Shown in pieces: positions 6,794 to 37,073 of a DNA stretch of 64,000 nucleotides; within the stretch, counting starts at the first letter, position 1; each line of letters opens with the position of its first letter. Under the pieces are notes generated by a model. It saw only the letters and a list, made by a program, of their open reading frames with translations, ran no database searches and was not told the DNA's origin. The position numbers were made by a program, and so were the translations under genes. Origin of the DNA: Promethearchaeota archaeon (GTDB taxonomy: Archaea > Asgardarchaeota > Lokiarchaeia > Sigyniarchaeales > SOKP01); NCBI GenBank assembly GCA_048940925.1, contig JBHLOC010000007.1, positions 56,064 through 120,063 on the forward strand, in the 5' to 3' direction.

Positions 6794-7777
6794 TTAAGAA
6801 TAAACTTTTTTAATAATACTTAAAAAATAATCATTCTCTTTTTTAGAACCTATAGTAACTCGTATATAATCTGATCCCAATTGAGCAGAAGCATTATGTA
6901 CTAAAATTCCTTTTTCTGTTAGAATTTGTGAAATATTAGGTATTTTCATTTTTAATAACAAGAAATTAGTATAACTTGGAAAAACATTAATGTTAAATTC
7001 TGATAGATACTTGCTAATTCTCTCTTTTTCGTTTTGAATTTCATCAACATAATCTGTCATATATCCTGGATTTCTCAAAGCGTTTATTCCTGCTATAACA
7101 CTGGGATAAGGAAGCATTATTTCTAACCCCTGAAATTTTCTACGAATTATATCTCCTGCTATTAAATAACCTATTCCTGAACCTGCCAAACCAAATGATT
7201 TACTCAATGTTCTTACTATAGCAAGATTAGGGTATTTTTCAATTAAGTGAATAAAACTAATATTTGAGAATTCGAAATAGGCTTCATCAATTAGGAGAAT
7301 TACATTATCAATTTTTGATATACTTTCAATGTCCTTTTGATTTATTATTAAATTCCCCGTTGGATTATTTGGATTATCAAAGACTAGTAAAGAAGGTTTA
7401 TCAAGTTCTTTAAGCAGGGGATCTATAGATATTTTGAAATCTGGCTCTTGTAGTCGGATCTTGATAAGTGAACTACCCGTATTTTGAGCAGCATTATTTA
7501 TTATTATAAAAGTTGGGTCTGAAATTATTATTTGTCGATTACTGGAAAAAAGGAAAATAAATTCCTTTATTAAAAGGTCTGAACCTGAACTTAAAAAAAA
7601 TGAATCATTAGGGATATTACAATAGAGAGACAATTCATTAATTAAAGTATCTACTTCCTTTTGTGGAGTATAACGATGAATCTTTCTAATACATTTCTTT
7701 ACAGGATTAGTTACTGTTTTTGGAGGAGACTTATACATTTCATTTAAGTTTAGTTTAACATTCATAATTTGAATCAC
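6794..7777 (-). CDS. PLP-dependent class I/II aminotransferase, HisC/CobD-like
   Basis: KLNLNE, NPNNPTG, DEAYFEF, RTLSKSFGLAG and RVTIG motifs. Confidence 0.8.
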   Translation of the reverse strand: MIQIMNVKLNLNEMYKSPPKTVTNPVKKCIRKIHRYTPQKEVDTLINELSLYCNIPNDSFFLSSGSDLLIKEFIFLFSSNRQIIISDPTFIIINNAAQNTGSSLIKIRLQEPDFKISIDPLLKELDKPSLLVFDNPNNPTGNLIINQKDIESISKIDNVILLIDEAYFEFSNISFIHLIEKYPNLAIVRTLSKSFGLAGSGIGYLIAGDIIRRKFQGLEIMLPYPSVIAGINALRNPGYMTDYVDEIQNEKERISKYLSEFNINVFPSYTNFLLLKMKIPNISQILTEKGILVHNASAQLGSDYIRVTIGSKKENDYFLSIIKKVYS

Positions 7778-7867: not shown

Positions 7868-8974
7868 CTAACATTCTATTGGAATAATTAATTCTTCCTT
7901 ATATCCTATTATTACTTTAGTAAATCCCTTAATTAAATTATCTACTTCAACATCACCACTGTCTACTCTTAAACAATTCAAATCTCTCATTTTTTCTGCA
8001 GTAGCTATGATTGTAATATTATTTTTTCCAATTCTTTTGAGCACTTCAGGGGTGAATTGCTTGTTTCCCCTTCCGAAAATAAAGCCTTGGCCACCTATGG
8101 GTGAAACTATAATTTGCGCATTAGAATATTTATTTAATAACTTGAGAATACCTTTTTCATTAAGATCTTCTTCAATCAATTTCTCATTGCTAATTGCATC
8201 TATTCCAAGGAGAGTTTTAGATAAATTAAGGTTATCTGTAATTGTCTTTACTGTTGTTCCCGGTCCTAATAAATATAATATATCTTTTTTCATATTTTCA
8301 ATGATAAATTCTGCTATTTCTTGCTTATTTTCTTCTATTGTCTTTCCGAATCTTGAACCAGTTTTACTTGATTGAAATAATTCTAGGATTTTAGGGACTT
8401 TTAGGTATCCATATAATCTTGCTTCTAAAATATCTTTCCTAACAAGGCTCTCATCAATATCTAACACTTCTTTTTCCTGTGTTTCAACAGCTTCTTCTAT
8501 GAATTTATCAATTATTTGTGCAGCAGCTCTTGGATTTAAAGCGAACACAGAACTAAACATTTTAACACCAGCAGGTATTGCAACTACAGGTTTTTCTAAA
8601 TCAATTGCATCATAAATATCTCTCGCAGTCCCATCTCCTCCACAGAAAATCAGCAAATCGATATTTTTCTGGAGCATCAATTTTGCAATTTTTTTGGTAT
8701 CATCTGCTGATGTGTCACTACCAATTTTTCCTATTATTTCAAACTTAAATTGTGTTCCCTTGATACTCTCAGCACCCATTTTACCTGGTGGTACTAACAA
8801 AAAAATTTCATTTTTATTACTAATATGAGATAGTAGCTCATTTACTCTTTTTGAAGCTATAGGAGTGGCACCCATTTTTAATGCTTCTTTATATATATCT
8901 CCATCTGTGCCTTTAAGACCTACACTACCACCCATTCCGGCAATGGGATTAATAATCAATCCAATCTTTTTCAT
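7868..8974 (-). CDS. ATP-NAD kinase family protein (AcoX-like)
   Basis: NPIAGMGGSVGLKGTD, GGDGTARD, PAGVKMFS and GGQGFIFGRGNKQ motifs. Confidence 0.85.
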   Translation of the reverse strand: MKKIGLIINPIAGMGGSVGLKGTDGDIYKEALKMGATPIASKRVNELLSHISNKNEIFLLVPPGKMGAESIKGTQFKFEIIGKIGSDTSADDTKKIAKLMLQKNIDLLIFCGGDGTARDIYDAIDLEKPVVAIPAGVKMFSSVFALNPRAAAQIIDKFIEEAVETQEKEVLDIDESLVRKDILEARLYGYLKVPKILELFQSSKTGSRFGKTIEENKQEIAEFIIENMKKDILYLLGPGTTVKTITDNLNLSKTLLGIDAISNEKLIEEDLNEKGILKLLNKYSNAQIIVSPIGGQGFIFGRGNKQFTPEVLKRIGKNNITIIATAEKMRDLNCLRVDSGDVEVDNLIKGFTKVIIGYKEELIIPIEC

Positions 8975-9007
8975 TATTTTTGGAAATTGTAATTAAAATA
9001 AAAAAAT

Positions 9008-10801
9008 CTAGTTTTTAGTCGGTGGGATTTCAAGTATAATTTCGGTTTTTTTCTTAACTCTTCGCTTCCAACTATCAGGGTTATACCCCTCTTTAGCAAG
9101 ATAATTCATTACAGTATTTACTTTAGGATTGATGCGAACGTCAATTACTGATGGTAAACCTGAATCAAAAGCTCGTTGTAAAGCAGGGCGAATCTCATTC
9201 GGATCTGTAACTAGTTCACCATGACATTTAAAAGCTTTAGCATATTTGTCATAACGTGTTTCACTGCTTAATGAAGATCCTAAACCGAAGAATTTCTTAC
9301 CATGAGACATTTTCTGACCTCGAGCAACCATACCCCATAGTTGATCGTTACTAATCACAACAACAATGGGCAAATTAAATCTACGGGCAGTTTCAATTTC
9401 TTTTCCATTAAATAAAAATGATCCATCACCAGTTAAAACAAGTACCTTTTTATTAGGATATACATATTTATTAGCAATAGCCATTGGTACACCACCACCA
9501 AGATGTTGGATACCTAATCCGCCAGAAAAATATAGAGATTTAGGTTGTTTAGCCCTCAAGTAGGTAATACCCCAAATCGTCGTATCACCTCCATCCAAAA
9601 TAACAACTCCATCTTTAGGTATAAAATCTCGAATTTCTTTAACAAGACGCTGTGGTTGGATGGGAACTTTGTCAGAAGATCCTTCTTTCTCAAGACGTTC
9701 TTCAAATTTCAATAAATATTCTTGAACTGTTTTAACCCATTGAGTTTCAGATCTAGGGTTTTTCAATTTATCCTCTGCTATTTTAATAAATTGGGTAAGA
9801 ACACCTTTGACATCTCCCACAATGGGAATATCAATAGCTCTATTTCTCCCAATTTCTTCAGCTTTAATATCAACTTGAATAAGTTTTGCTTCATCAGAAA
9901 AATATGGCATATACCCATAATTCATTAATTCAGTTATTCTCGATCCTAAAATTAAAGCTATATCAACTTTTTGGAGTAATGCTGTTCCTGGACCATCTAA
10001 AGGACTTGCGGGTCCAAAAAATAATGGATGATCGGTCGGAAACTCACCCAATCCAAATCCCCACAATCCTACAGGTATTTGTGTCAATTCAGCAAATTTT
10101 AGCAATTCTAAAGATGCATCGGAAAAAGCACATCCCGTTCCGGCGATTATTAATGGTTGTTTAGCTTTTAGAAGTAAATCAAGCGCGTTAGATATTAAAT
10201 TTTCATTTCCGTAAGGACCGTTAAATGCTCTTAATTTCTGTACTGGTTTAAAAGCTTGTTGTATGATATCTAACTCATCATCACATTCTTTTATCATCAC
10301 ATCAAATGGGATAAGTAAAAGAACAGGTCCAGGGCGACCAGTTGTAGCAATTCTAAACGCCATATTAATATATTCAGGGATTCTAGCTGTTTCATAACAA
10401 TATCCGCTCCATTTTGTCACAGGACGGAAGGAAGGGATTACGTCAATTTCATTTTGTGCTAATTTTTCAAAATCCATAAGGGGAGTACTTGAACAAATAG
10501 CTATTAATGGAATGCTTGCATCATAAGCTATAGGAATTGATGGAAACAAATCTGTTATTCCAGGTCCAGATTGAACTGAGCATACACCTACTTCTCCTGT
10601 AGCAAGAAAATAACCCATTGCTGCATGCCCAGTGGCTTGTTCATGCCGAAAATCTATAATATCAATCCCTTGTTCAGTACAGGAAGAATCTTGACAATAA
10701 TGATAGATCATTCTATTATCCCCACAAAGAGTAAATAAAACTCTAACTCCCTGATTATCTAAAGTGCGAACTATTAATTGAGCTCCGTTAACTTTTGTCA
10801 T
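9008..10801 (-). CDS. Thiamine-diphosphate-dependent enzyme (acetolactate-synthase-like / 2-hydroxyacyl-CoA lyase-like)
   Basis: RHEQ catalytic Glu, GRPGPV, GDGS...ND TPP-binding motif; no ilvN regulatory subunit nearby. Confidence 0.85.
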   Translation of the reverse strand: MTKVNGAQLIVRTLDNQGVRVLFTLCGDNRMIYHYCQDSSCTEQGIDIIDFRHEQATGHAAMGYFLATGEVGVCSVQSGPGITDLFPSIPIAYDASIPLIAICSSTPLMDFEKLAQNEIDVIPSFRPVTKWSGYCYETARIPEYINMAFRIATTGRPGPVLLLIPFDVMIKECDDELDIIQQAFKPVQKLRAFNGPYGNENLISNALDLLLKAKQPLIIAGTGCAFSDASLELLKFAELTQIPVGLWGFGLGEFPTDHPLFFGPASPLDGPGTALLQKVDIALILGSRITELMNYGYMPYFSDEAKLIQVDIKAEEIGRNRAIDIPIVGDVKGVLTQFIKIAEDKLKNPRSETQWVKTVQEYLLKFEERLEKEGSSDKVPIQPQRLVKEIRDFIPKDGVVILDGGDTTIWGITYLRAKQPKSLYFSGGLGIQHLGGGVPMAIANKYVYPNKKVLVLTGDGSFLFNGKEIETARRFNLPIVVVISNDQLWGMVARGQKMSHGKKFFGLGSSLSSETRYDKYAKAFKCHGELVTDPNEIRPALQRAFDSGLPSVIDVRINPKVNTVMNYLAKEGYNPDSWKRRVKKKTEIILEIPPTKN

Positions 10802-10949
10802 TTATTTAACCTTCATAAATAAATTTTTCGTTAAAGTACAATATTGATTTAGATATTCTTTATTTTATAATCTTCCTTTTATCTTCTGATAATTTTAGAA
10901 TATAAAATTTAAATTTTCTTTCCAAATGCATAAGAAATTGTTTAGGTTG

Positions 10950-11801
10950 CTAAGTTTTACCTAATCTTTTTCTTGCCTTTTTATAACTCTTATCTGACCA
11001 AATTCTAATGAGTTTAGGAAAATATCGATTTAATTTCCATATCAATTTAGCCTCTCCAGGTAAAATGTTAAATTTGGTTTTTAAAATACTATGTATAAAG
11101 ACTTCAGCAATATCTTCGGGTGTTTCAAGACCTCCTCTTTCTTCCATTAATCTACATTCCTCCGGTTTGGTTTTGTTCTCTCTTTCAAACCCAGGTGTAT
11201 CCATAGCAGGAGGATATAGAATTGATACCTTAATATTATAAGGTTTTAGCTCATTACGTAATGTTTCTGATAAACCTACTACCGCATATTTAGATGGAAC
11301 ATAAGTTGCAAATCCCATTAATCCCATATATCCTAACATAGAAGCAACATTTGCGATATATCCCTTCTTTTCTTTCATAAAATAAGGTAATAAAATTAAG
11401 ATTGGGACTAACTGACCATAATAATTCACTTCCATGTTCATTTTAAAATCCTCAAGAGATAAATTTTCAATGTAATCAGCAAAAGCATACCCAACACAGT
11501 TGAATAAATAATCGGGAATTCCATGTTTCTCTAAAAATTCAGTCAAAAGTGGGTTTAATTTATCAATAATTGTGGTATCACAGGTAATAATCTCTATAAA
11601 TTGTGAATCAACCTGTTTTACTTCCTCAATCTCATTAGCTGCTTCTTTTAAAATTTCTGTTCTTCTCGCAATAATGCAAACACTTCCCCCTAGTTCAACA
11701 AAGTATTTTGCTGTAGCTTTTCCTAATCCCTGAGATCCACCTGTGATAATAGCAATCTTGTTTTTAAATGGTTGTTTTTTGATTAATTTCTCTTTTTTCA
11801 T
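10950..11801 (-). CDS. SDR oxidoreductase, 3-ketodihydrosphingosine-reductase (KDSR)-like subfamily
   Basis: TGGSQGLG, YVPSK, and YPPAMDTPGFERENKTKP, which resembles the KDSR-type YPPDTDTPGFxxENxTKP signature. Confidence 0.7.
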   Translation of the reverse strand: MKKEKLIKKQPFKNKIAIITGGSQGLGKATAKYFVELGGSVCIIARRTEILKEAANEIEEVKQVDSQFIEIITCDTTIIDKLNPLLTEFLEKHGIPDYLFNCVGYAFADYIENLSLEDFKMNMEVNYYGQLVPILILLPYFMKEKKGYIANVASMLGYMGLMGFATYVPSKYAVVGLSETLRNELKPYNIKVSILYPPAMDTPGFERENKTKPEECRLMEERGGLETPEDIAEVFIHSILKTKFNILPGEAKLIWKLNRYFPKLIRIWSDKSYKKARKRLGKT

Positions 11802-18501: not shown

Positions 18502-20082
18502 ATGGTTGATAGAGTAGTACCATATCTAATTAATATGGATGAAGTAACTCCTGTCCGCTCTCAAGCATCATTATTAAATGAATTAGCAATGGCGTTAATT
18601 GAGTGTATATCAATTAATAGTAAAAAACTAAAAAAATTAGGCAAAATATCTAAAATTTCAACAGCATTTTGGCCAGTTCGTTTAGTCCCGTTGAGTGATA
18701 CGAGAGCATGCGTATTTAGTTATCTATTAAACAAACAAGAGAAGTTAAGTGTTGGTAAATGGGCGCAGATGCCTCCAAAACCAGAAAACATTATTAAGGG
18801 AGCAGATCCAGAATCATTTTTAAGCTCATTACAAAATTATAATAATACTTATTTAAAAAAAAGCAAAAATTTTAAACGTGGAACTGTAATACAAGAAGCT
18901 TTATTTAATGCTAGCGAAGTTGAGTATTTTCAGAATTTTTTCTTAAACCAATATAGTTTAGGTTCTCATTCAACACCTTATTTTCTATTAGAAGGTGGAC
19001 CTATCGCAAAAAGTGTAAATCAAACCAAAATTGTTCCAGAAATTATTGAGTTTGTCTCTCAAAAAGATATTGAAATACTTGATAAAATTGAAGACGGTAT
19101 TATGAAATTATGCGAACGGTGGGTTCAAAAAGGCTCTAAGGAGGTTGATAAAATAAGAGATACTAAAGTTGATACAAGTGAAGAAGAAAAGAATTTATCA
19201 ATTCTAAATAAAGAATTGCAAGCAGAAAAAGAAGAAGAAATAGAAAAAACACCAGAAGAACTAGTCAAAATAGGAAAGTACAAGGTAAATGATAAAACTG
19301 GAGAATTAAATAATGATCTTAGCTCACTTAAAAATAGTGTTGATGGCATGAAAAATGCTATTAATCAAAGAGATCTTTTTTTAGTAGAAGAAGGATTAAA
19401 AGAAATTCAACTAAAGTATCAGGAATTAGGAAATTCAATCAGTCGCTACAATACTGAAATTACACAATTAAGAAAAAATATCCAACGTGAGATTTCTGAC
19501 ACTGAAAGAGCAAAACAACAAAGAGTCCGAGAATTAGAACGAAAAAAAGCTGAAGTGGAAAAACAAATAGAAGCTAAACATTCTGGTTTAAGCAGAGATT
19601 TAACTTCCGCAGAAGATATCATAGCAGCTATAAAAATTGAAAAACAATCTTGTTTAGATAATCTTGAATCTGTAAAAGATATAGAAATGACGAATGTTCA
19701 GAATTTCTTTAATAGCTATTCACTTGCATTAAAGACACAAAATGTTATAGTTGGTATCCCGATTTATATCTTCTATTTCGTAGATCCTAATACAAATAGG
19801 ACTACAGAAAGATCTCCTGTACTTCCTATATTGATTGAAAAAGGGAAAACCGTAAGCACTAAAGTTAATGCAAGTTTCAGGCAGAAATTACGAAATCTAA
19901 TGAATAAGGATAATGCAATGATAGATTTGGTTGAAACTCAAGGCGATAAAAATAATATAATGGAAATAAAAAATCTAGACACTCGACTTGAAGATGCAAT
20001 TAATGATTTGCGAATTCGAAAGATATTGAAAAAAGGTCAAGCTGAAACCGCTAAAGATTTAATTGCTAATCTTATCTGGTAA
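18502..20082 (+). CDS. Hypothetical cytoplasmic protein with long central coiled coil
   Basis: Heptad-rich E/K/Q/L region (about aa 190-400) flanked by globular termini (FWPVRLVP; VGIPIYIFYF); no TM and no Walker motifs. Confidence 0.8.
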   Translation: MVDRVVPYLINMDEVTPVRSQASLLNELAMALIECISINSKKLKKLGKISKISTAFWPVRLVPLSDTRACVFSYLLNKQEKLSVGKWAQMPPKPENIIKGADPESFLSSLQNYNNTYLKKSKNFKRGTVIQEALFNASEVEYFQNFFLNQYSLGSHSTPYFLLEGGPIAKSVNQTKIVPEIIEFVSQKDIEILDKIEDGIMKLCERWVQKGSKEVDKIRDTKVDTSEEEKNLSILNKELQAEKEEEIEKTPEELVKIGKYKVNDKTGELNNDLSSLKNSVDGMKNAINQRDLFLVEEGLKEIQLKYQELGNSISRYNTEITQLRKNIQREISDTERAKQQRVRELERKKAEVEKQIEAKHSGLSRDLTSAEDIIAAIKIEKQSCLDNLESVKDIEMTNVQNFFNSYSLALKTQNVIVGIPIYIFYFVDPNTNRTTERSPVLPILIEKGKTVSTKVNASFRQKLRNLMNKDNAMIDLVETQGDKNNIMEIKNLDTRLEDAINDLRIRKILKKGQAETAKDLIANLIW

Positions 20083-20518: not shown

Positions 20519-23047
20519 ATGAAATTAGGCAAAAATTTACTAATTGCAATAATATTAGGTTCATTGTTAATGATAACTAAACCTATATTCAAAGTTAATG
20601 ATAACTTTTGTGATAATAATTATGTTCCAAACACAATGGAAGAGAAGATTTCTACATCAAATATTCCCCCAATACGCACTACTGAACCTCCTCGTGAAGA
20701 AACGGTCTGGATGACAGGAAGTTATAATTCTCCAACTCAATTTCTTCCATGGAGTGCTCAATTACCCCCAGGTGCAGATGCTGGTATGTATGAAGCTTTA
20801 TTCGGTTATAATAGTGTAACTAAGACACTTGTTCCGTGTATAGGTATTAGTTATTCATGGAGTGTAACTGGTAATAGTATTACTATTGATCTAAATCCTC
20901 TTGCTAAATGGTCTGATGGTTCACCTATTCAGGCTGATGATGTAGTTTATAGTTATGAATTAGCCTCAAATCAAACTAGATACAGAAAGGATTTTACAGC
21001 GAGGTTTATTGATCTTGTTGAAGTAGATACGGATACTGTTCGATTTGATATTAATACAACAGCAGGTTATAACTTTAGTAGGCAAGTTGAAATTTGGATT
21101 ATGTATAATATTCCAATTGTACCTAAACATGTATGGTCTCTAATTGTTGCTGATAAGGGTACTAATGATTTTATAGGAATTGGTTATCAATATGATTGGT
21201 TTGATTCAATAGATGTTCCTAACGAATGGAAAGTGATATCTGGACCTTATGCTCCTGTTTATCGAAATGCATCAAAAACTACTTGTGCATATCAGTATAG
21301 AGAGGATTGGTGGGGTGCTGGAATCCTTTACCAAGATCTTCCTAATGCAGCTGAAGATCCACCAAAATATATAGGAACAATTAGATTAACTTCTAATATT
21401 GAACAAAACCTCGCCTTGTTGCAAGGAGATGTTGATTTACATGCGAGTTATTATTATCATATTTGGGAAATCTGGGAAGATGCTACTCCGTCAGATCCTG
21501 GGTATTATATCAGTTGTTGGTATGATCATGATCCCCCTTATCAATTAGCTATTGGCCCTCTTATAACTCTTGCACCCAATCATCTTCTTGCAGATTCTCC
21601 ATTAGGAGTAAAAAATTTCAGAGAAGCCTTAGCTTATGCTATTAATTATACATCTATCCCTGCTGCAGCCGCTTCTGGATATTGGTCAAAATCTAAACCT
21701 GGATATATTGATAATAATAGCGCATTACATGCCCCATATTATAATGGGTCTATTACAGCAAAATATCAAAAATTTTTGAATGTCACTAATGCTATTGTAT
21801 TATTACAGAGCATTCCTGGTATGACAGGATCTGTAGCATCTGGATGGACATATAACGGACATGCTGTTGGACCTTACGAAGCAATTGTTCCTATTGGTTG
21901 GAGTGATGTTATTGCATATACAGAAATGGTTTGTAATGATATTACTGACAACTTAGGAATTACTATTACAGCCACACAAGTTGATTTTGAAACTATTTTT
22001 CAATCTTCGATAGAAAATAATAATTTTGATTTTGCTATATTTCGTGTCGGAAACCGAATATCAGATCCTCCTCAAAGATTTCTTGATTATATGAGAGGAA
22101 CACACTTATGGAACAAAAATGCAACCAATTGGAATAATCCTACATTTGAAGCTCTATGGCAGACGCTTGAAACTGCAAATGAAACAACTTATGCAAAGAA
22201 TCTGAACCTAATGCAAGAAATTTTAGCTGAAGAAGTTCCAGAAATTCCTGGGTTTGTTGATGGATATTGGTATGCTTTTAGTGAATATTTTTGGGAAGGT
22301 TGGGCAAGCGAAGCAAATAAATTTCAACAACTTGTTACAACTTGGACAGATAATCAGTTTGTAATTAAAACAAGATTAATGTTGAACTTAAAATCAATAG
22401 ACCGCAAAAGTCCGATGATTACTATTAATTCACCAAGTGAAAATCAAGTATACGGTGAATTTGCACCAAATTTTAACGTGGAAGTATATGATGCTAATCT
22501 TGATACGATGTGGTACACCATAGATGGAGGATTTACTAACATTACATTTATTACCAATGGAACAATCGATCAAAATAATTGGAGTGCTCAAGTTGACGGT
22601 CCTATGGAGATAATTTTTTATGCAAATGATACATTAGGTCATATAAACTCCAATCAAGTCATAATCAATAAAGATACTACAGTCCCTGAAATAATTATCA
22701 ATTCTCCATCTCCCGATCAAGTATTCAGAGGTAATCCTCCTGAATTCAGTTTATCTATAAATGAAAGTAATTTAGAATCAATTTGGTATACATTAGATAA
22801 TGGATTAGTGAATATTACATGTGAGATATCAGGACAAATTGATCAAAATTATTGGAATGCGCTAAAACCGGGAAGTTATACCCTTAGATTTTATGCTAAT
22901 GATACAATGGGTTATAAAGGATTTTCGGAAGTATCTATTAAGAAAAAAGCAAGGGTAATTTCTGTGTATAATCCAATAATTATATCTATAATTACTGTAT
23001 TGGTAACTATAACTATTAGGTATAAAATAAAGAAAAAATTGAAATAA
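20519..23047 (+). CDS. Family-5 ABC solute-binding protein (oligosaccharide/peptide-binding type) with two Ig-like stalk repeats and C-terminal membrane anchor
   Basis: MYEALFGYN, AKWSDGSPIQADDVVYSY, SGPY, FREALAYAIN and MQEILAEEVPEIP; WYTIDGG...FYANDTLG repeats; C-terminal ISVYNP + TM + basic tail. Confidence 0.85.
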   Translation: MKLGKNLLIAIILGSLLMITKPIFKVNDNFCDNNYVPNTMEEKISTSNIPPIRTTEPPREETVWMTGSYNSPTQFLPWSAQLPPGADAGMYEALFGYNSVTKTLVPCIGISYSWSVTGNSITIDLNPLAKWSDGSPIQADDVVYSYELASNQTRYRKDFTARFIDLVEVDTDTVRFDINTTAGYNFSRQVEIWIMYNIPIVPKHVWSLIVADKGTNDFIGIGYQYDWFDSIDVPNEWKVISGPYAPVYRNASKTTCAYQYREDWWGAGILYQDLPNAAEDPPKYIGTIRLTSNIEQNLALLQGDVDLHASYYYHIWEIWEDATPSDPGYYISCWYDHDPPYQLAIGPLITLAPNHLLADSPLGVKNFREALAYAINYTSIPAAAASGYWSKSKPGYIDNNSALHAPYYNGSITAKYQKFLNVTNAIVLLQSIPGMTGSVASGWTYNGHAVGPYEAIVPIGWSDVIAYTEMVCNDITDNLGITITATQVDFETIFQSSIENNNFDFAIFRVGNRISDPPQRFLDYMRGTHLWNKNATNWNNPTFEALWQTLETANETTYAKNLNLMQEILAEEVPEIPGFVDGYWYAFSEYFWEGWASEANKFQQLVTTWTDNQFVIKTRLMLNLKSIDRKSPMITINSPSENQVYGEFAPNFNVEVYDANLDTMWYTIDGGFTNITFITNGTIDQNNWSAQVDGPMEIIFYANDTLGHINSNQVIINKDTTVPEIIINSPSPDQVFRGNPPEFSLSINESNLESIWYTLDNGLVNITCEISGQIDQNYWNALKPGSYTLRFYANDTMGYKGFSEVSIKKKARVISVYNPIIISIITVLVTITIRYKIKKKLK

Positions 23048-34484: not shown

Positions 34485-37073
34485 ATGAATTATGGTGGAA
34501 TTATGGAAGTAGAACAACGTAAGATTTATGAAGAACAAATTAATAAGTATAAGGAATTACGTCCGCTTTATAAACAGTATAGTAAGATTTTGAAAAAAAT
34601 ATTGGATAATTTAGTTTGTGGTTGTTCGTCTGAATTTATTATAGAACGAAGAGTCAAATCTATTTCTGGTTTTGCAAATAAAATATTCAATCCCGAAGAA
34701 ACATATACTAATCCTATTTTGGAAATAAAAGATTTATGTGGGATTCGGATTATTCTTCCTAATATTAGTGAAATGAATGCTGTTTGTAACGTTATTCGTG
34801 ATAATTTTATTGTTGATATCACTGAAAGTAGTGAGATAATTGGACCAAGTACAGGTATGGATATTTTAGAGCATTATCGCACATATATAGTCCAGCTTAT
34901 CCCAACATTAAGTCTTTATGAGAGATTAAATTTGAAAATTCCTGATGAAATTTTTAATTTAAAAGCAGAAATACAAGTTCGCACCTATCTTAGTCAGGGT
35001 TGGGCAGCAAATCAAGATCAAATTTTCAAAAAGTATGAATTTAAAGTACCAAGAGCGTATGAACAGGAATTTAGTCGCGTAAAATCATTATTAACGATTG
35101 AAGATGATGCTTTAGATAATATTATGAAAAAAATGCAGGATTACAAATCAATATATGGTGCTTATATGTCAAATGAAAAAATAAAATCAGAGATTGAAAG
35201 ATTAGAGATGGTTTATGAAGCAGATAAAAGTAATTATGAAATAGGTCATAGAATAGCAAAATTAGCAATGACAGTTAACAATATGGATAAATCTATAGAA
35301 ATTTTAAATGAAATCATTAATAATCCTGAATTTAAACAAGCTCCTGCTATAGAAATTGCTAATATATTGCGAGATTTTGGAACTTCACATCATATAAAAT
35401 ATAAAAAAGAGCCACGGGGTGCAAATTTCTTAAAAGGACAATCTTACTTAAAAGAAGCAGTTCAGAAAAATCCTCTTGATTATGATGCGTGGTCATCTTT
35501 AGGGGGGACCTATAAAGACCAAAAAAACCTTGATAAGGCATTAGAATGCTATAAACAAGCATTAAAAGTCAATCCTGGTGATCCTTATCCATTAGGGAAT
35601 TATCTAGTTTTAAATATTCAACAAACAGGAAATTTATTACATATTGAAAAAAACCATGAAATGATTAAAAAAGCGATTGAAAAAAGGTTAAGACAAGTAG
35701 AAGTTATGGTAGACATGCCTTGGGCTTATTTTGATTTAGGGTTGTTTAATTTATTTTTAGGAAACCTACATTTAGCTCTAGATAATTATTTGAAAGGAAT
35801 TCGATTCAGCCCGAATATTTGGATGATTGAAACTACATTAAATACCTTAAATAATCTTAATATTGTTCAAAATAAGTTAGAAGGCATAAAAACCGTAAAA
35901 CATTTATTACTGCTAGGAATATATTTTCATCCGAATCTTGAAGAAAAAACTGAAAAACTGTTAGAGGAAACTATTCTTAAATTAGATGCTGACTTTGACC
36001 AAAAAGAAAAAGATTTTGGTGATTCTATAGTTATTATAGCTGGAGGAACAGATGAGCGAATAGAAAGAAGCCTGGATGCTATAAGAAATAATCTAATTGA
36101 GTCCTTTAGCGATTTTGGATGCACAATTATCTCAGGAGGCACAAAATCTGGTATTAGTAAGATAGTAGGAGATATACAAGAAAAATACCCAAGTAATATT
36201 AAAACGGTTGGATATATCCCAAGTCATATTCCCGCTCATGTAGAATTGGACAAAAGGTATTCCGCAATCCATATTACAGAAGGAAAAGATTTTAGCATCT
36301 TGGAACCTTTGCATTATTGGTATGATTTAATGAAATCTGGAATTGAACCGAGTAGAATTAAACTTATTGGAATCAATGGAGGAAATATTGCGGCTTTTGA
36401 GTTTCATGTTGCGATTGTATTTGGAGCGCAAGTGGGTATAATGAAAAATAGTGGTAGAGCATCTTCAGAATTAATTAACGATCCTAGCTGGGAAGAACCA
36501 ACGGGACCTGAATATGGCTATAAACCAAAGAAATTGATTAAAGTTTTGAAAAATTCAACAGAAGATATTTATAACTTTTTGACAAAGCCATTTATAATTG
36601 ATCCTGATATAGATAATATTCAAAAGTTACTTATACAATATCGAGAAAGCGGAGCAGATATGTATGAATTAAATTTTACCTCAGAAGAAATCGATAATAC
36701 TATATTTTCTGGATTTTTAACGGCCTTGGATCTTATCGCAAGCCAAGAATTAAAGGTAGGCGAAATTGTATCAATAAAGTTCAGTGAAGGTCATTTGACT
36801 GGAGGATTCTTTACTAATAAGGAATTTAAAATAGTATTTTTACTAAATGAGACACCCTCACCATCGTTAGAAGAAAAAATTACTGATTATATAAAAGAGG
36901 TAGAAAGTAAATTAGGTGAACATTTTCATACTCTACAACAAAGTTGTCGGGGTTATCTTGGGGGTAAAGAGATGAATATGATTCTTTCAAATATCTTTGG
37001 TTCAGAAATTTTAAAATTTGTAGACACAAAATTCGAGCAAGAATCTTCAGAACTAGTTCAAGTGCCTGAATAA
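34485..37073 (+). CDS. Multidomain protein: RelA/SpoT-like synthetase, TPR, SLOG-like domain, longin-like domain
   Basis: RRVKSISGFANK, DLCGIRI and EIQVRT (RSH synthetase motifs); DAWSSLGGTYKDQKNLDKALECYKQALKVNP (TPR); IIAGG, ISGGTKSG, GINGGNIAAFE and SGRASSEL (SLOG-like); SG..MY...FSGFLTAL (Asgard longin-like). Confidence 0.75.
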   Translation: MNYGGIMEVEQRKIYEEQINKYKELRPLYKQYSKILKKILDNLVCGCSSEFIIERRVKSISGFANKIFNPEETYTNPILEIKDLCGIRIILPNISEMNAVCNVIRDNFIVDITESSEIIGPSTGMDILEHYRTYIVQLIPTLSLYERLNLKIPDEIFNLKAEIQVRTYLSQGWAANQDQIFKKYEFKVPRAYEQEFSRVKSLLTIEDDALDNIMKKMQDYKSIYGAYMSNEKIKSEIERLEMVYEADKSNYEIGHRIAKLAMTVNNMDKSIEILNEIINNPEFKQAPAIEIANILRDFGTSHHIKYKKEPRGANFLKGQSYLKEAVQKNPLDYDAWSSLGGTYKDQKNLDKALECYKQALKVNPGDPYPLGNYLVLNIQQTGNLLHIEKNHEMIKKAIEKRLRQVEVMVDMPWAYFDLGLFNLFLGNLHLALDNYLKGIRFSPNIWMIETTLNTLNNLNIVQNKLEGIKTVKHLLLLGIYFHPNLEEKTEKLLEETILKLDADFDQKEKDFGDSIVIIAGGTDERIERSLDAIRNNLIESFSDFGCTIISGGTKSGISKIVGDIQEKYPSNIKTVGYIPSHIPAHVELDKRYSAIHITEGKDFSILEPLHYWYDLMKSGIEPSRIKLIGINGGNIAAFEFHVAIVFGAQVGIMKNSGRASSELINDPSWEEPTGPEYGYKPKKLIKVLKNSTEDIYNFLTKPFIIDPDIDNIQKLLIQYRESGADMYELNFTSEEIDNTIFSGFLTALDLIASQELKVGEIVSIKFSEGHLTGGFFTNKEFKIVFLLNETPSPSLEEKITDYIKEVESKLGEHFHTLQQSCRGYLGGKEMNMILSNIFGSEILKFVDTKFEQESSELVQVPE

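Follow-up and report, generated by a model that had tools for sequence, protein, structure and literature searches.

In archaea, enzymes of the RelA/SpoT homolog (RSH) family occur sporadically and in small numbers (Atkinson et al. 2011, PMC3153485), in agreement with a first-pass annotation of the present locus, which had called them uncommon there. The question raised here is what an RSH protein does in an Asgard archaeon when it is fused to three further domains and encoded next to a row of TIR-domain genes. The gene lies in a 64,000-nucleotide stretch of a Promethearchaeota archaeon (GenBank assembly GCA_048940925.1, contig JBHLOC010000007.1, positions 56,064 to 120,063 of the forward strand), which is referred to below as the window and has a G+C content of about 30%. 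Analysis of the protein confirmed that an alarmone-synthetase-type enzyme, a TPR region, a TRPM-type SLOG domain and a longin-fold tail are fused in this Lokiarchaeial gene. On balance, it is probable that this RelA/SpoT-family protein is the cytoplasmic, ligand-gated receiver and output of TIR nucleotide signaling, in which a NAD-derived signal made by TIR domains would be sensed by the SLOG domain and answered by the RelA/SpoT domain. This Thoeris-like assignment as an output enzyme is made because the gene nearly always adjoins genes for TIR-domain receptors.

Gene and domain organization

The open reading frame (ORF) is uninterrupted, is preceded by a 467-bp AT-rich spacer and is followed by a T-run after the stop codon. 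The 25 aligned homologs all have their first residue opposite M7 of the query, so translation probably starts at the ATG at 34503, giving 856 residues, rather than at 34485. A hydropathy scan of the 862-residue protein revealed no membrane segment; the sole scanned interval over the threshold (residues 635-653) lies inside the hydrophobic core of the SLOG domain. The four-domain protein has no transmembrane (TM) segment and is therefore cytoplasmic. In profile searches of the archaeon's own genome, the gene was the sole RelA_SpoT gene and also the sole LSDAT_prok gene. DNA records of the gene come from sediment and mangrove metagenomes, and no RNA records are listed for it.

The RelA/SpoT, TPR, SLOG and longin-like domains had all been called by the first-pass annotation from the sequence. 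Profile matches and structure models bear out each of the four, with coordinates that proved accurate to a few tens of bases. The motifs that it had picked out were also all located, namely RRVKSISGFANK at residues 55-66, DLCGIRI at 83-89, EHYRTY at 129-134, EIQVRT at 162-167 and QGWAANQDQIFKK at 171-183. The alignment showed that the helical region between the enzyme and the SLOG domain (residues 233-500) is strongly conserved throughout the family, and the TPR-S "sensor" model touched 12 of 26 scanned members, including the query.

TIR receptor genes adjoin the gene

Five genes on the same strand upstream of the ORF end in a TIR_2 domain, and four of them encode type I membrane proteins with a cytoplasmic tail (Table 1). 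The fifth TIR gene stops 467 bp ahead of the RSH ORF. The whole genome (4.8 Mb) holds only 8 TIR_2 genes, 5 of which are in the window. Genes downstream of the ORF are metabolic. One glutamate is invariant in the 7 TIR and DUF4062 domains that were aligned and coincides with a glutamate of a solved TIR-TPR protein (9m0n_A); we infer that this is the catalytic position.

The same neighborhood was examined at 13 full-length orthologue loci with usable flanks, covering 36-91% identity, using our own TIR profile together with BLASTP. A TIR_2-type gene was found within about 2.5 kb at 9 of the 13. The arrangement varies between loci, with TIR genes that precede the orthologue in the same orientation, that converge on it or diverge from it, or that flank it on each side. 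At 2 further loci the neighbor is a DUF4062-LRR or DUF4062-TPR gene, and the DUF4062 domain also matches TIR_2 (E=7.6e-4 in the one case tested). At locus L001, a 1638-residue NosD protein ends in a TIR domain that was detected by BLASTP and is not evident from the Pfam summary. Furthermore, in a more distant relative that is 26% identical and carries a RyR tail (P0057, locus L035), 15 nt separate the end of an Asp-protease-TIR gene from the start of the RSH gene downstream.

Full-length homologs are about 855 residues long and range from 88% to 36% identity; where a source name is given, it is Lokiarchaeota or Promethearchaeota. A match to the family was obtained in 20 of 301 genomes sampled from the phylum, including 11 of 22 from the genus and 17 of 68 from the family; the gene is accessory, not core. 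Variant arrangements also occur. RSH-TPR-SLOG proteins of 669 residues have no tail and often adjoin a TPR-SLOG-longin paralogue that has no RSH domain, and RSH-TPR-SLOG-RyR proteins (for example P0055-P0057 and P0204-P0206) form a further variant.

Table 1. Features of the window, with positions counted from its first nucleotide
Feature	Coordinates	Strand	Description
Four-domain protein ORF	34485..37073	+	Uninterrupted, 862 aa; 856 aa from ATG 34503
RelA/SpoT-type nucleotidyltransferase (synthetase) domain	34650..35009	+	Residues 56-175, Pfam RelA_SpoT PF04607
Helical/TPR region	35181..35984	+	Residues 233-500; Pfam TPR matches 315-410, sub-threshold TPR-S match
SLOG domain, LSDAT/TRPM type	36027..36554	+	Residues 515-690; Gly-rich loops, E607, W612, D614
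Longin-fold C-terminal domain	36603..37022	+	Residues 707-846, fold from model
TIR receptor 1, 1597 aa	13599..18392	+	Signal/TM, NosD beta-helix ectodomain, TM 1293-1311, C-terminal TIR_2
TIR protein 2, 506 aa	23278..24798	+	N-terminal membrane segments, coiled region, C-terminal TIR_2
TIR receptor 3, 995 aa	24825..27812	+	Beta-helix and Ig ectodomain, TM 684-702, TIR_2 tail
TIR receptor 4, 986 aa	27976..30936	+	Ectodomain, TM 677-695, TIR_2 tail
TIR receptor 5, 979 aa	31078..34017	+	Propeller and beta-helix ectodomain, TM 797-815, TIR_2 tail

The SLOG domain

SLOG domains are sensors of cyclic ADP-ribose (cADPR) variants (PMC9503650). The LSDAT_prok family (PF18171) scored 23.9 bits on the protein, just below its cut-off of 25.4, and 27.2 bits in a six-frame search of the genome; 23 of the 26 orthologues matched it, the best at 3.5e-9. 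The model of residues 500-700 was of high quality (pLDDT 92.1, pTM 0.90). When it was submitted to Foldseek, the top 50 matches were all N-terminal MHR1/2 regions of TRPM channels, the first being TRPM2 with ADP-ribose (7e-8). The first 26 rows returned by the VIA structural aligner were SLOG proteins only, with Z-scores from 17.5 to 10, among them TM1055 (17.5), TRPM2 (15.2), LOG (13.8), DprA (13.6), the ThsA SLOG domain with 3'cADPR (11.4) and YpsA (10.0). A sequence search of the PDB with the SLOG and longin part returned nothing useful. In 23 of the 26 members, there is no change in the IIAGGT, SGGTKSG and NGGxIAxxE loops or in residues E607, W612, D614 and E639. The structure model confirms residues 515-690 as a member of the SLOG superfamily, with a predicted Rossmannoid fold and glycine-rich nucleotide loops.

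The RelA/SpoT domain

Pfam RelA_SpoT matched residues 56-175 with 36.9 bits (cut-off 27) and reached 41.2 bits in the genome search; 22 of the 26 orthologues matched the same family. The closest solved relatives by sequence are RelP/YwaC (6fgk, E=5e-7) and then RelQ (5dec). Residue roles were taken from S. aureus RelP (SaRelP), in which the ATP donor and Mg2+ are bound by R78, K80, S84, K88, R91, D107, R112, E174 and H190 (Steinchen et al. 2018, PMC5794853). Six of these nine positions are retained. R56 and R88 are the equivalents of the two adenine-stacking arginines, K58 and K66 correspond to phosphate-binding lysines, and D83 and E162 to the two Mg2+ ligands. The changed donor-side positions are G62 in place of S84, N69 in place of R91 and D178 in place of the ribose-contacting H190. 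G86, Q164 and R166 are also retained. The complete donor set (R56, K58, K66, D83, G86, R88, E162 and Q164) is present in 17 of the 26 members, the query included. Judged by these residues, ATP-Mg binding and pyrophosphate transfer seem within the capacity of the domain.

The acceptor side has diverged. The G-loop reads EHYRTY and has no GYxSxH context, while the segment corresponding to the EHxxxYK motif reads NQDQIFKK. At the position of Y131, which is aligned with the conserved G-loop tyrosine, an aromatic residue occurs in the eleven closest of the 25 aligned homologs and in no others. Because the G-loop and EHxxxYK acceptor motifs are not retained, GDP or GTP is not the obvious acceptor and (p)ppGpp is not the obvious product. 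The toxSAS enzymes that target tRNA are reported to lack a clear sequence signature (Kurata et al., 10.1101/2021.04.30.441581), and the acceptor is therefore not readable from sequence. The first-pass annotation had proposed either a non-canonical product or an inactive enzyme. That proposal fits the residues, given a mostly preserved donor site, a divergent G-loop on the acceptor side and the loss of donor or catalytic residues in 8 of the 26 members.

These features bear on whether the protein is simply the housekeeping (p)ppGpp synthetase of the archaeon, serving a stringent-response-type function. In favor of this, the genome has no other RSH, the RelA_SpoT score is above the cut-off and the nearest solved sequence relatives are RelP and RelQ. 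However, neither the G-loop/GYxSxH nor the EH..YK acceptor motif is kept, and the NCBIfam YjbM (RelQ) equivalog model gave 27.6 bits, far under its cut-off of 320. Moreover, no HD_4 alarmone hydrolase was found in the genome, which is estimated to be 100% complete, only half of the sampled genus genomes carry the gene, and conditional signaling is indicated both by the sensor domains fused to the enzyme and by the neighboring TIR genes. A housekeeping role is very unlikely.

Another possibility is that the protein belongs to a toxin-antitoxin pair as a toxin of the toxSAS type, comparable to CapRel or FaRel. The acceptor site of toxSAS enzymes is altered in the same way, and these enzymes pyrophosphorylate tRNA or make (pp)pApp (10.1101/2021.04.30.441581). 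In addition, PADLOC returned a weak PDC-S33 match to residues 12-107. However, no small antitoxin gene was seen among the neighbors, which are instead TIR genes, and no fused antitoxin-type domain was seen in the protein, which is four times the size of a toxSAS enzyme and carries sensor domains. We give this explanation hardly any credence, slightly less even than the housekeeping role.

The longin-fold tail

No Pfam or NCBIfam family matched residues 696-862, and Pfam Longin, Sybindin, Sedlin_N, Clat_adaptor_s and SRX gave no match to the protein at E<=1. The model of the tail (pLDDT 82.4, pTM 0.77) has the order beta-beta-alpha-beta-beta-beta-alpha-alpha. Its best structural matches were TRAPPC (Z 10.7), BLOC-3 (10.1), Fuzzy (9.9), and AP-3 mu and VAMP7 (both 9.7), with Mon1-Ccz1 also among them, and each of the longin matches spans residues 15-147 of the tail model. 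Roadblock proteins, namely MglB and the MK-D1 roadblocks, matched over a shorter span with Z-scores of 8.4-9.4. On the strength of the model, the term longin-like is correct as a fold call, and the tail is outside the named sequence families.

A profile built from the tail recovered 588 representatives (E<=1e-3) among 1.8 billion proteins, and those with a source name come from Lokiarchaeota. Many of the 588 proteins have a length of about 750 residues or far more and consist of a signal/TM segment, an ectodomain and one TM segment, with the module in the cytoplasmic tail. Of the carriers scanned, the two largest (P0078 and P0092) have an Ig-like ectodomain and the others match no Pfam family. 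As many of the 588 carriers have this single-pass receptor layout, the module is a common cytoplasmic tail of Asgard single-pass receptors. In the reading favored here, the tail of the RSH protein is an Asgard-specific addition, and its use as a receptor tail elsewhere suggests that the module probably mediates dimerization or docking. A complex prediction of the enzyme tail with the tail of a receptor from the same genome that bears the module gave a score of 0.00, which carries no weight either way.

The archaeon's own genome encodes two type I membrane proteins with the same longin-like module in the cytoplasmic tail, one of 757 residues (C11:6307-8580, locus L020) and one of 771 residues (L021:6565-8880(-), on contig C52). 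Neither matches a Pfam family. The first is flanked by small-GTPase genes at C11:4067-4471 and 10508-10990, on a contig that is rich in Ras-superfamily genes.

It was also considered whether the longin tail might serve as a link between alarmone synthesis and small GTPases, either as a platform of the GTPase-activating or nucleotide-exchange (GAP/GEF) type or as an effector site, as the first-pass annotation had supposed. The fold of the tail is that of a longin or roadblock domain, and proteins with such folds regulate GTPases in eukaryotes, in Myxococcus (MglB) and in the Rag-like systems of Asgard archaea (PMC10933270). About 95 Ras-superfamily proteins are encoded in the genome, and the receptor on contig C11 that carries the same module has small-GTPase genes on both sides. 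However, the context of the RSH gene lends the idea no support. None of the roughly 95 Ras-superfamily genes is in the window, and no GTPase is a conserved neighbor of the orthologues examined, whose conserved partner is TIR, a domain that the first-pass annotation had named only among its suggested checks. Locus L003 has an Arf-family gene (PF00025) approximately 6 kb downstream, which does not recur at other loci; with one GTPase per approximately 50 kb, chance proximity is common. In addition, the core of the family exists without the longin tail, in the RyR-tailed and 669-residue forms. Coupling to GTPases is considered distinctly unlikely.

Proposed pathway

RelA domains occur in conflict systems (PMC7159879), and the domain content and neighborhood described above suggest the following course of events. 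A TIR-domain sensor would first be triggered; in the window, this would be one of the five upstream TIR membrane proteins with their large ectodomains and cytoplasmic TIR tails. Its TIR domain would turn NAD+ into a messenger derived from ADP-ribose, and this TIR-made messenger would be bound by the TPR-SLOG module of the RSH protein. Binding would switch on the N-terminal RelA/SpoT domain, which would use ATP as the pyrophosphate donor and an acceptor other than GDP or GTP, possibly another nucleotide, the 3' end of a tRNA or the messenger itself. The outcome would be growth arrest or a second signal, and the pathway as a whole might serve immunity or environmental sensing.

Several observations weigh against this pathway. 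Two of the 13 full-length loci (L003 and L030) have no TIR-superfamily gene within 10 kb, and the 669-residue forms without longin are mostly without a TIR-superfamily neighbor too. The orthologue loci are related, and the neighbor counts are not independent. In the window itself, the RSH gene is not obviously within an operon or a defense island, with the AT-rich spacer of 467 bp upstream and a metabolic gene cluster downstream. The SLOG domain retains LOG-like acidic residues and may therefore have an enzymatic role. Furthermore, the RSH-TPR-SLOG family is so far known from sequences, gene context and models. Lastly, 8 of the 26 members have lost R56, K66, G86, R88 and/or E162 and have kept the SLOG motifs; E162 is replaced by lysine in P0030, P0032 and P0037, and R88 is lost in six members. 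The function of the family therefore cannot rest on RSH catalysis everywhere.

These losses raise the possibility that the RelA/SpoT domain is a pseudoenzyme or a regulatory nucleotide-binding module, and that the protein is a non-catalytic sensor or adaptor in which TPR-SLOG reads a nucleotide and the longin domain recruits partners. In the 8 members concerned, the SLOG, TPR and longin parts are conserved. The RSH domain is also the least conserved part of the protein, with a mean identity to the query of 48% vs. 58-63% for the other parts, and there are natural split forms with a TPR-SLOG-longin paralogue that lacks it. However, the donor set is complete in the query and in 17 of the 26 members overall, arguing for catalysis having been retained in the lineage. 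A wholly non-catalytic protein is unlikely, less clearly so than coupling to GTPases.

The reading of the protein as a receiver and output of TIR signaling can be extended to an Asgard pathway shaped like that of Toll-like receptors. Diversifying single-pass surface receptors would sense something outside the cell and, through enzymatic TIR tails, give rise to a NAD-derived messenger, a SLOG-gated RelA/SpoT domain would convert it into a second pyrophosphorylated nucleotide or RNA mark, and the longin tail would tie the protein to the module-bearing receptors or to small GTPases. This fuller scheme is put forward tentatively and appears doubtful as a whole.

Comparison with known systems

Thoeris signaling from TIR to SLOG is known in bacteria with effectors that deplete NAD or disrupt membranes. 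The present locus resembles type I Thoeris (ThsB, a TIR protein, and ThsA, a SIR2-SLOG protein) in that a TIR gene adjoins the gene for a SLOG-bearing effector, in that the SLOG model matches the ThsA SLOG domain, and in that the TIR partners vary in their sensor parts while the reader protein stays conserved. However, the SLOG domain is of the LSDAT/TRPM clade, whereas that of ThsA belongs to the ThsA/YpsA clade, and many of the TIR partners are single-pass membrane receptors with ectodomains. The system described here also has no known anti-virus phenotype. Its output is a RelA/SpoT nucleotidyltransferase, in contrast to SIR2, Macro-TM or the other effectors given in the main text of a Thoeris survey with eleven verified types, where no RelA, alarmone or RyR effector appears (10.64898/2025.12.03.692087). 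No description of the fusion turned up in text searches of the literature that combined SLOG with RelA/SpoT.

Close counterparts are also the RelA/SpoT-TPR-SLOG-RyR proteins, which are unnamed in databases. They have the same three-part N-terminal core, their SLOG domains are 40-42% identical in P0204-P0206, and at the one locus examined (that of P0057) a TIR gene is directly upstream. They differ in that a C-terminal RyR domain replaces the longin fold, and whole-protein identity is 26-33%. RelP and RelQ have the RxKxxxSxxxK, DxxGxR and EIQxRT motifs in common with the present protein, but the G-loop and EH..YK are not kept here, and the 862-residue protein has three extra domains. The MHR1/2 region of TRPM2, an ADP-ribose-binding SLOG domain of the LSDAT_euk type, was the best Foldseek match of the SLOG model; in TRPM2 the domain gates an ion channel, whereas here it would gate an enzyme. 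The tail has the topology and fold of the longin and roadblock domains of TRAPPC, Mon1-Ccz1, AP mu/sigma, VAMP7, MglB and the Lokiarchaeal Roadblock-Longin protein (8yqg), with Z-scores of 10.7 to 7.2. It differs from eukaryotic and Asgard longin and roadblock domains in being a separate sequence family without a Pfam longin match.

If the proposed pathway is correct, the RelA/SpoT output would link two major kinds of nucleotide signaling, namely messengers of the TIR/ADP-ribose kind and alarmone-type pyrophosphotransfer. Under the fuller, more tentative scheme, the system would add a Thoeris-like type whose output is new, and surface-triggered TIR signaling would have a prokaryotic case in the lineage closest to eukaryotes. 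The gene is relevant to the origin of eukaryotic innate-immune and signaling architecture because of its Asgard setting, its receptor-like TIR partners and a longin module of a kind otherwise tied to eukaryote-like trafficking and GTPase regulation. Moreover, an Asgard virus encodes a Tad2-like sponge for Thoeris signals, and no complete Thoeris system was predicted in the genomes of its putative hosts (PMC13700489). A TIR-linked RSH gene is a concrete candidate explanation for the presence of that sponge.

Variant loci and other genes

Two-gene forms of the family were seen at L029:3929-8072(-) and L034:10001-14233(+), where a gene for a 669-residue RSH-TPR-SLOG protein is directly beside a gene for a protein of 700-723 residues. 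The partner at L029 is a TPR-SLOG-longin paralogue without an RSH domain, which suggests that the two halves work as a complex. The partner at L034 is without annotation and gave no match to our own profiles. Beside a 36%-identical relative (L033), a stand-alone SLOG paralogue of 280 residues (6850-7689(-)) and a RyR protein of 579 residues (8002-9741(+)) are encoded between the TIR receptors and the RSH-like gene.

At the two loci without a TIR gene, a gene for a 220-residue protein with the metallo-beta-lactamase (MBL) fold lies one or two genes upstream (L003:8284-8946(-) and L030:8108-8770(-)). It gave a weak match to the Anti-Pycsar protein Apyc1 and may encode an enzyme that degrades a nucleotide signal. 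Next to a 39%-identical relative, a TIR gene is followed by genes for ThiF (E1-like), Prok-JAB and UFC1-like (E2-like) proteins (L032:3217-7931(-)). Ubiquitin-like conjugation sets of this kind occur beside bacterial immune signaling genes. At L038:9992-12711(-), on contig C47 of genome G071, where TIR genes flank the orthologue on either side, the gene is broken into two overlapping frames with an in-frame TAG, probably through pseudogenization or an error in assembly.

Two further genes in the window lie upstream of the RSH gene. A coiled-coil-rich protein of 526 residues that matches no Pfam family (18502-20082) is conserved in three relatives, at 75-79% identity, where its gene also lies between the gene for the TIR receptor and that for the RSH protein. 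The protein falls within a widespread archaeal family of hypothetical proteins, shows no relationship to the RyR protein of L033, and was set aside as a likely synteny passenger. Within the array of TIR receptors, an 842-residue protein (20519-23047) is of the SBP_bac_5 solute-binding type, with Ig-like repeats and a C-terminal TM segment. Its C-terminal repeats resemble those of a giant protein of 2604 residues that occupies the same place in genome G279 (L025:4685-12499).

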